The notes: generated by a model from the sequence alone, not told the origin. 64,000 nucleotides of DNA from an uncultured Clostridia bacterium (GCA_946496065.1 CAMMFF010000001.1:191681-255680); one strand, 5' to 3'. Shown: positions 58,035 to 62,436, counted from the first letter of the stretch. Program-made: numbers and translations.

Positions 58035-58068
58035 TAATATAGAAAATATTTTTATTTAGGGGAGAGAG

Positions 58069-59235
58069 ATGAAGAGAACAATAAGAGATTTAAAAAACAT
58101 TGAGGGGAAACGCGTTCTTTTGAGATGTGACTTCAATGTGCCTCTTGATAAATACGGAGATATTTTGGACGACACTCGTATCTCTGCGGAATTGCCAACA
58201 ATCAAATATTTGGTGGAAAAGAATGTCAAACTTATTGTGTGTTCTCATCTTGGCAGACCTAATGGCTATGACAAGTATTTGTCAATGTTTCCTATTGCAG
58301 TCTATTTAATGAAACACTTTCCAAACAAAGTTAAGTTTTGCAACAAGGTTGTTGGACCAGAGGTTGACAATGCTGTCGCAAAAATGAAACCGGGCGAAAT
58401 TATAGTTTTGGAAAATTTGCGTTTTCAAAAAGGTGAAGAGGAGAACTCTCCAGAATTTGTTGCAGCACTTGCTCGTCTTGCAGATATTTATGTTGACGAT
58501 GCGTTTGGTGTGACTCACAGAAAACACGCTTCAAACTATGGTGTGGCACTCAAACTTCCAAATGCAATTGGTTTCTTGATTGAAAAAGAATTGACTGTTT
58601 TCAAAAAAGCGTTTGAACATACAGAGCACCCATTTGTCGCCATTTTTGGAGGGGCAAAGGTTGCGGATAAATTGAATTTGATCAACAATGTGATGGATAA
58701 AGCTGACACAATCATTATTGGTGGAGGCATGGCATATACTTTCTTGCAAGCACAGGGATATAACATTGGAGATTCGATTGTGTCTCTTGACCAAATTGAC
58801 AATGCTGTTGAAATTTTGAAAAGAGCAAAAGAAAAAGGTATAGAAATTTTGTTGCCTGTTGATCATATTGCACTTTCAAAAGATAGAGCCGTTAAAACCT
58901 CACAACTTTCAAAGGGTATGGTTGGACTTGATATTGGACCAAAAACAATCAAACTTTTTACTGATGCAATTATGAATGCTAAGCAAATCATTTGGAATGG
59001 TCCATTAGGGAAATATGAAGATGCAAGATTTAAGAAAGGAACAATCAAAATTGCCAAAGCTGTGGCAAAAAGTGGGGCATATTCCATCGTCGGAGGCGGT
59101 GACAGTGTCAGTGCTGTCAAGGCAAGCGGAGTTGCGGACAAAATCAACCATCTTTCAACAGGTGGCGGAGCAAGTTTGAAACTTATGGAAGGAAAAGTTT
59201 TGCCTGCAATTGAAGTGATTGACACATTAAATTGA
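58069..59235 (+). CDS. pgk: phosphoglycerate kinase
   Basis: RCDFNVPL, SHLGRP, GGGDS, STGGGASL. Confidence 0.95.
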   Translation: MKRTIRDLKNIEGKRVLLRCDFNVPLDKYGDILDDTRISAELPTIKYLVEKNVKLIVCSHLGRPNGYDKYLSMFPIAVYLMKHFPNKVKFCNKVVGPEVDNAVAKMKPGEIIVLENLRFQKGEEENSPEFVAALARLADIYVDDAFGVTHRKHASNYGVALKLPNAIGFLIEKELTVFKKAFEHTEHPFVAIFGGAKVADKLNLINNVMDKADTIIIGGGMAYTFLQAQGYNIGDSIVSLDQIDNAVEILKRAKEKGIEILLPVDHIALSKDRAVKTSQLSKGMVGLDIGPKTIKLFTDAIMNAKQIIWNGPLGKYEDARFKKGTIKIAKAVAKSGAYSIVGGGDSVSAVKASGVADKINHLSTGGGASLKLMEGKVLPAIEVIDTLN

Positions 59236-59283
59236 AATCTTTTCGTCTTGCAAAATCAATAAAGTTAATTATAGGAGAGAGAA

Positions 59284-60033
59284 ATGAAAAAAATAATCAT
59301 TGGTAATTTCAAAATGAACACCAAGCCAAGTGAACTTAAACCTTATGCGATGTCACTTGCGACAAAAACCAAGGGTTGTAAAAATGAAATTGTGATTTGT
59401 CCTCCTTACACACATTTATCTGTTGCTAGAGAGTTTCTTACTGGAAGTGATGTTGCATTTGGAGCACAAAACATTTCAGAAGAAGAAAAAGGTGCCTTCA
59501 CTGGAGAGATCAGTGCAAGCATGATCAAAGACCTTGGAGCAACCTATGTTATTATTGGACATTCAGAAAGACGTTCAAAATTTAAAGAAACAGACAAACT
59601 TATCAACAAAAAAATCAAAACTGCATTGGCAAATGGACTTAAGGTGATTTTGTGCATTGGTGAGAGTTTGCAAACAAGGGAAAGCAAACAGGCATATGCC
59701 TTCATCAAAAAACAACTTGATGATGATTTGAAAGGAATTTATGAAAACGAACTTGACAGTGTCATCATTGCTTATGAACCTATTTGGGCAATCGGCACTG
59801 GCAAGACAGCAACAAACAAAGATATCACAAAAATGATTGAAACAATCAGAAAAGAAATTGAATATCTTTATTCAGAAAAGGCTGGAAAAGGTGTGACAAT
59901 CATCTATGGCGGAAGCGTTAACATCAACAACTATAAGAAAATCATTTCAAATGAAGCGGTTAATGGTGTTTTGATTGGTGGCGCTTGCCTTGATGTTGAT
60001 GCGTTTGCTGTCATTTGCAGAGAGAATTATTAA
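59284..60033 (+). CDS. tpiA: triose-phosphate isomerase
   Basis: GNFKMN, IIGHSERR, AYEPIWAIGTG, YGGSV. Confidence 0.95.
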   Translation: MKKIIIGNFKMNTKPSELKPYAMSLATKTKGCKNEIVICPPYTHLSVAREFLTGSDVAFGAQNISEEEKGAFTGEISASMIKDLGATYVIIGHSERRSKFKETDKLINKKIKTALANGLKVILCIGESLQTRESKQAYAFIKKQLDDDLKGIYENELDSVIIAYEPIWAIGTGKTATNKDITKMIETIRKEIEYLYSEKAGKGVTIIYGGSVNINNYKKIISNEAVNGVLIGGACLDVDAFAVICRENY

Positions 60034-60045
60034 TACGGAGAAAGA

Positions 60046-61149
60046 ATGAATCATATTGCGCTTTACAGAAAATACCGACCAAAAACTTTTGAAGAGGTCA
60101 TTGGACAAGAACACATAACCAAAACTCTTCAAAATCAGATTGAAAATGACCAGATTGGCCATGCTTATCTTTTTACGGGCACAAGAGGGACTGGAAAGAC
60201 AAGTGTGGCAAAAATTTTTGCAAAATCTGTAAATTGCCTAAGTCCAGTTCATGGTTCTGCTTGTGGACAATGTGAAAATTGCAAAAGATTGGAACAAGAA
60301 AATGACATTAACATAATTGAAATTGATGCTGCTTCAAACAACAAAGTTGATGACATCAGAAACATAAGAGACAAAGTCAAATTCATGCCTGTTGGGGCGA
60401 AATATAAGGTTTACATCATTGACGAAGTTCATATGTTGTCGGACAGTGCGTTTAATGCACTTTTGAAAACATTGGAAGAACCACCTTCTTATGTCATTTT
60501 CATTTTGGCAACAACGGAAGTGCACAAACTTCCTCAAACAATTCTTTCAAGATGTGTGAGATTTGATTTCAGGTTGGTTTCTGCAGAAATGCTTGCAAAA
60601 CATTTGGCAAAAATTTTTGACAAAGAAAACATCAAATATGATGAAGAGAGTTTGAAGATCATTGCAAGTGCAGGAGAAGGCAGTGTGAGAGACACTCTCT
60701 CTATTGCAGACTCCATCGCTTCTTATTGCCAAGGCAATGTCACAAAAGAGAAAACTTTGAGCGTTTTGGGAACAACGGACCATGATTTGATCATCAATTT
60801 CTTCGACAAAATTCAAGAAAAAGATGTTGGTCAAGTTTTGAGTTTGATTGATCGTATCGAAAAAGAAGGAAAAAATTTGGCTGTATTTTCAAAAGATTTG
60901 TCCAAACATGCAAGAAATTTGTTGGTGTGCAAATCTTGTGAAAATGCAAATGAAATACTCAATTTGACAGATGATGTGTTTGCAATGTATAAAGAGCAAT
61001 CACAAAAGTTTGAAGAGAAAGATTTGATTCGATATATGCAAGTTTTCTCAAGTGCTGAGAGTGAACTTAGATACACTCTTTCTGTCAGATTGCTTCTTGA
61101 GACAACTTGTCTTACTGCGATGCTGGGTTTTGATGTAAAAAAAAACTGA
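60046..61149 (+). CDS. dnaX: DNA polymerase III gamma/tau subunit, domains I-III only (367 aa in the zero frame)
   Basis: YRPKTFEEVIGQEH, Walker A GTRGTGKTS, Zn module CGQCENC, DEVHMLS, SRC. It stops at TGA 61147-61149 right after an A9 run. Confidence 0.9.
   Translation: MNHIALYRKYRPKTFEEVIGQEHITKTLQNQIENDQIGHAYLFTGTRGTGKTSVAKIFAKSVNCLSPVHGSACGQCENCKRLEQENDINIIEIDAASNNKVDDIRNIRDKVKFMPVGAKYKVYIIDEVHMLSDSAFNALLKTLEEPPSYVIFILATTEVHKLPQTILSRCVRFDFRLVSAEMLAKHLAKIFDKENIKYDEESLKIIASAGEGSVRDTLSIADSIASYCQGNVTKEKTLSVLGTTDHDLIINFFDKIQEKDVGQVLSLIDRIEKEGKNLAVFSKDLSKHARNLLVCKSCENANEILNLTDDVFAMYKEQSQKFEEKDLIRYMQVFSSAESELRYTLSVRLLLETTCLTAMLGFDVKKN
61137..61145 (+). promoter_or_regulatory. dnaX: A9 run / A AAA AAA slippery heptamer (candidate -1 frameshift or transcriptional slippage site)
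   Basis: ...GAT GTA AAA AAA AAC TGA. The -1 frame opens at 61134, directly after TGA 61131-61133, and runs into ORF 61164-61484. Confidence 0.5.
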
Positions 61150-61163
61150 AAATTGAAAAAGAT

Positions 61164-61484
61164 GTGACAAAGCTTTCTGCAAACAATGTTTGGGGAAAGG
61201 TTGTGCTTTATTTGAAAGAGCATAAGAAAGTTGCTTTGCATGTGGCTTGTGGAGACATTACAAATGCAAAGATTGAAGATGGAAAATTGATTATCCGTTC
61301 GAGCGATGATTTCTTGATTGATGTTCTTGAAAATGGACGAAAGGAAATTGAAAATGCAATCAGATGGCAAGGGCTAAACCTTAGTTTTGTTGTGGTTAAG
61401 TTTGAAAGCGATGAACAAAAAATCAACAAGGACATCAAAAAACTTGAAAATTTCTTTGGAAACAAAGTGGAAATTAATGATTGA
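61164..61484 (+). CDS. 106-codon ORF in the -1 frame of dnaX; probable DnaX C-terminal domain
   Basis: Its own start is only a GTG, with no clear SD. The sequence VWGKVVLYLKEHKKVALHVACGD..EDGKLIIRSSDDFL..IENAI resembles (from memory, not aligned) the C-terminal domain fused to DnaX in other Bacillota. Confidence 0.55.
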   Translation: MTKLSANNVWGKVVLYLKEHKKVALHVACGDITNAKIEDGKLIIRSSDDFLIDVLENGRKEIENAIRWQGLNLSFVVVKFESDEQKINKDIKKLENFFGNKVEIND

Positions 61485-61501
61485 AAATAAAGGAGAATGA
61501 A

Positions 61502-61816
61502 ATGGGATACGGTTTTGGTGGTTTCGGTGGTGGAAATATGCAGGCTTTGATGCGTCAGGCACAAAAAATGCAAGAAGATATGAAGAGAATTCGTGACGAG
61601 ATTGACAGCACAGAATATAAGTCATCTGTTGGCGGCGGTATGGTTGAAGTTTGTATGCTTGGAAACAAGACTGTCAAAAGTGTCAAGATCAAACAAGAAG
61701 TTGTTGACCCAGACGATGTTGAAATGTTGGAAGACTTGGTCACAAGTGCTGTCAATGATTGTTTAAACAAAATTGCTGAAGACGAAAAGAACAAGTTGCC
61801 AAATCTTGGAATGTGA
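61502..61816 (+). CDS. ybaB: nucleoid-associated protein YbaB/EbfC
   Basis: Gly-rich N-terminus, then MQALMRQAQKMQEDM. AGGAGA SD before ATG 61502. Conserved dnaX-ybaB-recR order. Confidence 0.9.
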   Translation: MGYGFGGFGGGNMQALMRQAQKMQEDMKRIRDEIDSTEYKSSVGGGMVEVCMLGNKTVKSVKIKQEVVDPDDVEMLEDLVTSAVNDCLNKIAEDEKNKLPNLGM

Positions 61817-61842
61817 CAGTTTGACAACTTTTGAAGGTGTTT

Positions 61843-62436
61843 ATGAGTGAATTTGACGAACCAATTGAAAGATTGATTGAATATTTCAGAGCGTTGCCGG
61901 GTGTGGGAAAGAAAACCGCACAACGCTATGCTTTCTATGTGATTGAAAATGACAAAGCAAAAGCAGAAAATTTTGCAAAGGCAATCATTGATGTCAAAGA
62001 GAAAGTTAGACTTTGCAGTGTGTGTGGAAATTACAGTTCAAGTGAAGTTTGTCCAATTTGCCAAAAACGAAACAGACAGATTGTTTGTGTTGTTCAAGAG
62101 CCAAAGGACATCATTTCTTTGGAAAAGGCGAGAGGGTTTGACGGAGTTTATCATGTGCTCTTTGGGTGCATAAATCCACTTGAAAACAAAGGTCCAAATG
62201 ACATCCGCATCAAAGAATTGTTGGCAAGAATTGGAAAGGACAATGTCAAAGAAGTCATCATGGCAACAAATCCTGATGTTGAAGGAGAGGCAACAGCGAT
62301 GTATGTTGCAAAAATTCTCAAACCTATGGGGGTTAAGGTCACAAGACTTGCACAGGGAATTTCCATGGGAAGTGACATTGAATTTGCTGACGAGGTGACA
62401 TTGAGCAAAGCATTGGCAGACCGAAAAGAAATGTAA
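61843..62436 (+). CDS. recR: recombination protein RecR
   Basis: LPGVGKKTAQR HhH motif, C4 zinc finger CSVCGNYSSSEVCPIC, and Toprim VVQEPKD...EGEATA. Confidence 0.95.
   Translation: MSEFDEPIERLIEYFRALPGVGKKTAQRYAFYVIENDKAKAENFAKAIIDVKEKVRLCSVCGNYSSSEVCPICQKRNRQIVCVVQEPKDIISLEKARGFDGVYHVLFGCINPLENKGPNDIRIKELLARIGKDNVKEVIMATNPDVEGEATAMYVAKILKPMGVKVTRLAQGISMGSDIEFADEVTLSKALADRKEM

Follow-up and report, generated by a model that had tools for sequence, protein, structure and literature searches.

An invariant A9 run in dnaX of Candidatus Caccovivens and related Clostridia as a probable site of recoding with the long form as shifted product

In E. coli the two products of dnaX are made from a gene with an in-phase lysine heptamer, A_AAA_AAG, an upstream SD-like element, a downstream stem-loop and a stop codon one codon past the site, which is a precedent for programmed ribosomal frameshifting (PMC5009743). 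In Thermus thermophilus the same gene is subject to transcriptional slippage (Larsen et al., 2000; summaries in PMC5009743 and PMC3711429): according to these summaries a nine-A run, with nearby stops in both alternative frames, gives rise to mRNAs with extra A's and thereby to two products, tau from unslipped and gamma from slipped mRNAs.

In 2013 Antonov, Coakley, Atkins, Baranov and Borodovsky reported in NAR on two-ORF dnaX genes that can form tau only through recoding (PMC3711429), a layout that was restated in 2016 by Atkins et al. (PMC5009743). Their set comprised 17 genes from 12 genera; the examples with poly-A are from Chlorobi, Bacteroidetes (Flavobacterium, Cytophaga, Capnocytophaga) and Coraliomargarita (Verrucomicrobia) and mostly have a G after A10 (supplementary Fig. 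S3 of PMC3711429). By analogy with Thermus these authors proposed transcriptional realignment (PMC3711429). Conserved frameshifted poly(A) tracts that are rescued by polymerase slippage are also described for the insect endosymbionts Buchnera and Blochmannia (cited in PMC5009743 and PMC3017870); these frameshifts are scattered, mostly lineage-specific and "tolerated".

We analysed a stretch of 64,000 nucleotides from an uncultured gut bacterium of the Clostridia, here called the window, in which nine consecutive A's mark the point where dnaX is split between two frames. The features discussed below are the following, all on the plus strand:

60046..61149, +, dnaX zero-frame ORF, predicted by standard decoding to give a 367-aa gamma-like product with clamp-loader domains I-III
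61131..61133, +, TGA stop in the -1 frame shortly 5' of the run, read from the sequence
61137..61145, +, A9 slippery run and putative recoding site, zero-frame phase GT[A AAA AAA AA]C
61143..61484, +, C-terminal extension in the -1 frame, 113 codons plus stop
61147..61149, +, zero-frame stop TGA, one codon past the A9 run, which ends the short form
61154..61156, +, third-frame stop (ACT GAA AAT TGA), which would end the products of A8 and A11 transcripts
61502..61816, +, ybaB/ebfC, operon context 3' of dnaX (Pfam YbaB_DNA_bd, E = 7.9e-28)
61843..62436, +, recR, operon context (Pfam RecR_HhH, RecR_ZnF, Toprim and RecR_C)

The zero frame of dnaX ends with GAT GTA AAA AAA AAC TGA, and the -1 frame is open from the A9 run until the TGA at 61482-61484. 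The extension consists of an 18-codon linker that leads from the run to a conserved Trp (61191-61193), followed by a domain of about 90 aa resembling domain V of tau. A -1 shift, or the addition of one A, would yield a fusion of 479 aa with the junction ..FDVKKKLKIEKDVTKLS.. / ..FDVKKKLKIEKDVTKLSANNVWGK... An earlier note on this DNA had given the same position of the run, the same frames and the same lengths of the short and the fused product, all of which we could reproduce. Pfam recognizes DNA_pol3_delta2, DNAX_ATPase_lid and DNA_pol3_gamma3 in the 367-aa product, and NCBIfam PRK05563 aligns with residues 3-356 at model positions 2-354 of 567; since the match ends at position 354, the C-terminal third is missing from the zero-frame product. 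The gene order around the locus is pgk-tpiA-dnaX-ybaB-recR. In one of the metatranscriptomes (X25) a 4359-nt RNA contig with a depth of 34 covers 58068-62426, exactly from the start of pgk to the end of recR, and this single contig suggests that the five genes are co-transcribed.

The earlier note had named a homopolymer miscall (true A10) as the trivial alternative. DNA contigs from Logan (four runs from four different studies) are identical to the window over 60900-61400, have no indel and read A9; since four independent DNA assemblies agree, the run is not a one-off homopolymer miscall, and that alternative finds no support. The A9 at 61137-61145 is also the sole A/T run of nine or more within the 64-kb window, against 17.9 ± 4 such runs expected from a first-order Markov model, an approximately 18-fold depletion. 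Apart from the one in dnaX, such runs are therefore strongly avoided, which is consistent with selection against slippage-prone homopolymers in this genome of 35% GC.

A scan of the GTDB species representatives gave 80 loci from a Caccovivens/Christensenella-like clade. In 79 of the 80 species the N-part of DnaX and the C-domain are in frames that differ by -1, so that the layout that the note had described for one genome is kept among its relatives. In these 79 species the junction is A9 followed by C-TGA or C-TAA, save one that reads CTCCAAATGA. The 11 nt of A9CT are invariant, at identities that range from 100% down to 65% in the N-part of DnaX and fall to 46% in the C-part; when 279 nt (-150 to +129) are stacked without gaps, no stretch of at least 4 nt other than A9CT is invariant. 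Outside the run AAG makes up 26.6% of the Lys codons, and at the 18 further positions with a conserved Lys it is used in 9 to 66% of the species. AAG being tolerated elsewhere, the invariance of A9 must reflect a constraint at the level of the nucleotides rather than of the protein.

The stops around the run are conserved as well. A zero-frame stop (TGA or TAA) follows AAC immediately in 78 of the 79 species. In most relatives the open -1 frame and the zero frame overlap, up to the stop of the latter, by no more than 16 nt. The third frame is closed within 10 codons of the run in all 79; in 77% it takes at most 3 codons, as compared to 32% for the same frame farther downstream. Upstream of the run the zero-frame phase has the highest third-position entropy (1.22 vs 0.48 and 0.22), and downstream the -1-frame phase (1.24 vs 0.57 and 0.33). 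Judged from this substitution pattern, both halves of dnaX are under purifying selection, each in its own frame, with the change of phase at the run. In 77 of the 79 species 18 codons separate the conserved Trp from the run. Between these two points 35 of the 79 have no ATG, GTG or TTG at all, and a start codon preceded by an SD-like sequence is found in only 3.

The same cassette is present in distant lineages, as GT-A9-CTAA (L083), TCA-A9-CTGA (L085) and G-A10-CTAA with the same 3' phase (L081 and L082), and ends dnaX domains I-III at L081:725-734, L083:559-567 and L085:2453-2461. In L081-L083 and L085 the linkers before the C-domain are much longer (ORFs of 180-233 aa in L081, L083 and L085). 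More distant short ORFs begin with ..KKKL(I/K).., and a profile made from the distant sequences matched only short "hypothetical" ORFs of Clostridia MAGs. From its presence in distant lineages it follows that the cassette is much older or wider than the Caccovivens clade.

A search with the 116-aa product of the -1 frame retrieved 282 homologues. The 120 matches listed are without exception short ORFs, 83-125 aa in length; those among them that have a name are entered as "hypothetical protein" of MAGs of Ca. Caccovivens or Clostridia. The versions of 124 and 125 aa start 5' of the run and are unconserved before the motif KKKLKIE and conserved from the motif on. Searches of Pfam, NCBIfam and PDB sequences with the 116-aa C-part found no significant family. 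An HMM of the C-part domain was then run against a metagenomic protein collection with 1.84 billion cluster representatives, where it matched 129 proteins, mostly short ORFs, together with several DnaX proteins that have the domain as their in-frame C-terminal part. Two of these, P0239 (507 aa) and P0245 (514 aa), are full-length DnaX with the Pfam domains I-III followed by the C-domain in frame; P0160 and P0227 are DnaX fragments in which the C-domain is likewise in frame. By this comparison of sequences the ORF of 106/116 aa and the C-terminal domain of full-length DnaX are homologous, as the note had supposed for 61164-61484.

The AlphaFold2 model of the C-domain has an alpha/beta fold with a pLDDT of 72. 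Its best fold match in the PDB, a weak one, is domain I of DnaA (4tps; TM 0.54/0.71, E = 0.02); further weak matches are DciA (8a3v and 7ykm) and the C14 fragment of E. coli tau (2aya/5fku), with E = 0.2-0.3 for 8a3v and 2aya/5fku. Domain V of tau, domain I of DnaA and DciA reportedly share a KH-like fold. We take the C-domain to be the equivalent of tau domain V. The C-terminal domain of E. coli tau binds the replicative polymerase; by analogy with E. coli tau only, the C-domain may bind PolC/DnaE.

The locus resembles the type described by Antonov et al. in that domains I-III stop directly past the poly-A, the tau part lies in the -1 frame and the run is conserved. It differs in the host, which belongs to Bacillota/Clostridia (Ca. 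Caccovivens and relatives), in the strict A9-C-T(G/A)A, and in the extension, which at 113 codons is very short and would comprise domain V only. With Thermus dnaX it has in common the nine-A run and the nearby stops in both alternative frames; the extra A's are found here in consensus RNA contigs, and two products are predicted. The assignment of the products is the reverse of that in Thermus, save in the A10 variants L051 and L084 described below. With E. coli dnaX it shares, besides the gene, the in-phase lysine heptamer, the stop one codon past the site and the two products, here predicted; neither A_AAA_AAG nor the SD-like element nor the stem-loop is conserved, however, and the shifted product would be the long instead of the short form. 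The endosymbionts are similar in having a low-GC genome, an essential gene broken at a long A tract and a rescue at the level of the RNA, which is here proposed; unlike theirs, the site is a single one, invariant in at least 79 species, with two isoforms predicted.

No paper was found in the literature that describes a reversed dnaX layout in Firmicutes. Because of the precedent of Antonov et al. (PMC3711429) the locus is a new member, in Bacillota, of an already known reversed dnaX layout: the layout is known from other phyla and its occurrence in Bacillota is new. The inverted logic pointed out in the note, with standard decoding giving the short and recoding the long form, stands in its substance and falls as a novelty.

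The run also occurs with other lengths. In a MAG of Ca. Caccovivens faecavium (L051:3000-3009) it is A10 and dnaX is in frame; DNA run X35, assembled independently, has A10 too, and the DNA runs X38 and X44 have A9. Strains of this species seem to differ naturally in the length of the run and hence in which DnaX form is the default. A metagenomic relative (L084:625-634) has a full-length in-frame dnaX with GTC-A10-TAACTGA, and both other frames stop immediately after the A10, a Thermus-like layout inside the same C-domain family. Antonov et al. used the presence of both directions as a criterion for transcriptional realignment (PMC3711429).

The RNA data are consensus contigs of four chicken-gut metatranscriptomes (X25-X28). 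At the run they read A9 (X25), A10 (X27) and A12 (X26), and the X28 contig stops 12 nt short of it. On 9-nt runs of A or T, slippage of the bacterial polymerase inserts as many as 6 extra nucleotides (PMC5009743), with which A10 and A12 agree. Extra A's in the RNA, envisaged in the note, are thus found, in consensus contigs that could also stem from strain-level DNA polymorphism or from slippage of reverse transcriptase or during PCR. The differences in length between the RNA contigs could be strain differences, since an A9/A10 polymorphism exists in the DNA of the sister species. The RNA contig of Ca. Caccovivens faecavium (X51) has a plain A9.

As a control, 40 kb of sequence were inspected in the same RNA runs, and all homopolymers of 7 or 8 nt were free of indels. 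Single-base insertions were seen in X27 and X28 contigs at seven 6-nt runs (six A6 and one T6; 12367, 19411, 46250, 47774, 53396, 56868 and 62510), each in one library at a depth of 3-9. They could be library noise or a low level of general slippage and set the background for the A9 result. For a second species (L008) the four RNA runs gave no coverage, and for this reason the RNA result is without replication there.

Very probably, the A9 in dnaX serves programmed recoding of some kind. As the best explanation of the whole we propose, with a confidence that is high but a little lower, programmed recoding of dnaX, with transcriptional slippage as the most likely mechanism. Ordinary transcription and translation would yield the 367-aa gamma-like subunit, which stops one codon past the A9, and the 479-aa tau-like subunit would require a net frame change of -1 at the run. 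RNA polymerase would reiterate on the T9 template and thus generate a mixed population of mRNAs. Of these, A10 (and A13) mRNAs would give tau by normal translation, A9 and A12 mRNAs the short form, and A8 and A11 mRNAs the short form with three extra residues. Tandem -1 slippage of the ribosome on A_AAA_AAA might add a share, a contribution that is possible because this heptamer is always in phase for it.

If the recoding is programmed, it is rather likely to proceed mainly by transcriptional slippage and unlikely to proceed mainly by ribosomal frameshifting. Transcriptional slippage is favoured because the RNA contigs vary in length, stimulators are not conserved and both layouts occur among the relatives. 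RNAalifold found no consensus pairs at the site in the 79 species, and single-sequence folding no conserved stimulatory structure; the 55 nt 3' of the run have an MFE z-score of -0.65 on average. An SD-like 4-mer 5' of the run is present in only 8 of the 79 species, Rfam had no match at the site at E ≤ 10, and the heptamer contains a G in none of the 79 species, being always A_AAA_AAA and never A_AAA_AAG.

That transcription is faithful and the shift occurs mainly by -1 programmed ribosomal frameshifting on the unedited A9 mRNA is a reading which we consider distinctly doubtful. Two tRNA-Lys would slip on A_AAA_AAA, or the P-site tRNA would slip while the nearby stop is slowly decoded. The correct phase of the heptamer in 79 of 79 species, the same -1 direction throughout, the zero-frame stop one codon past the site in 78 of them and the precedent of E. 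coli dnaX with A_AAA_AAG (PMC5009743) all agree with it. However, positions 8 and 9 of the run, which lie beyond the heptamer, are equally invariant; neither a downstream structure nor an upstream SD-like element is conserved; A_AAA_AAA is much less shift-prone in E. coli than A_AAA_AAG (PMC5009743); and the length of the run varies between RNA contigs. The in-frame A10 relatives with stops in both other frames would make sense only if the run length is edited. Very improbable is a split gene, the C-domain being a separate protein of about 12 kDa that joins the clamp loader non-covalently and is translated by independent initiation or by termination-reinitiation at CTGA, with the A-run as an unstructured A-rich landing site for ribosomes. 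The overlap of the stop with the first -1 codon in CTGA does resemble coupling of the ATGA type, and in every assembly the gene callers annotate the downstream part as an ORF of its own, 83-125 aa long. Yet, as noted above, 35 of the 79 species lack a canonical start before the conserved domain and only 3 combine a start with an SD-like sequence, the overlap is CTAA in a dozen species, CTA not being an initiation codon, and a landing site would allow G substitutions and changes in length, of which none were seen. The in-frame A10 variants show in addition that a fusion is viable.

The note had ascribed to the downstream ORF only a GTG start and no convincing SD. That there is no convincing start is correct; the GTG at 61164 itself is not conserved, 35 of the 79 species having neither ATG nor GTG nor TTG ahead of the conserved domain, and for lack of conservation independent initiation at this codon was rejected. 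Genetic code 4 was likewise rejected: past the run the zero frame has several TGAs and then a TAA, and the neighbouring genes are all normal in table 11. The probability is practically negligible that the split stems from an error of sequencing or assembly (true A10) or from decay of the gene into a pseudogene. Homopolymers are error-prone and the MAG L051 does have A10, but A9 was found in four independent DNA assemblies and in 79 species from many groups, and purifying selection acts on both halves of the gene, each in its own frame. Against a pseudogene it also counts that dnaX is an essential single-copy gene.

Coming back to programmed recoding chiefly through transcriptional slippage, we put forward tentatively, as a possibility rather than an expectation, its most far-reaching form: the whole clade would make a gamma-like and a tau-like DnaX, the short one by default and the essential long one through slippage of RNA polymerase at the invariant A9, with natural A9/A10 variants that flip the default. 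If tau depends on slippage throughout the clade, an efficiency of slippage near 50% would be implied, and the ratio of tau to gamma would be set, and possibly tuned, by the fidelity of transcription. Strains with A9 and strains with A10 offer a natural comparison of how far the cell relies on RNA-polymerase slippage for an essential replication protein.

To our knowledge a gamma form has not been reported from Bacillota, and the layout suggests a gamma-like clamp-loader subunit in a lineage of Firmicutes. It would extend reversed dnaX recoding to Bacillota, and with 11 invariant nucleotides in at least 79 species the site is conserved about as strictly as could be wished of a recoding site. 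Hundreds of public MAG annotations would be wrong here, giving a truncated dnaX and a "hypothetical protein".

Contigs that join distant parts of the window were also present among the RNA contigs of X25 and X26 (49740/59810, 56137/60961 and 55060/64000); they skip 4.8-10 kb or switch strand. Each join is represented by one contig with a side of 21-38 nt, for which reason they are probably assembly chimeras.
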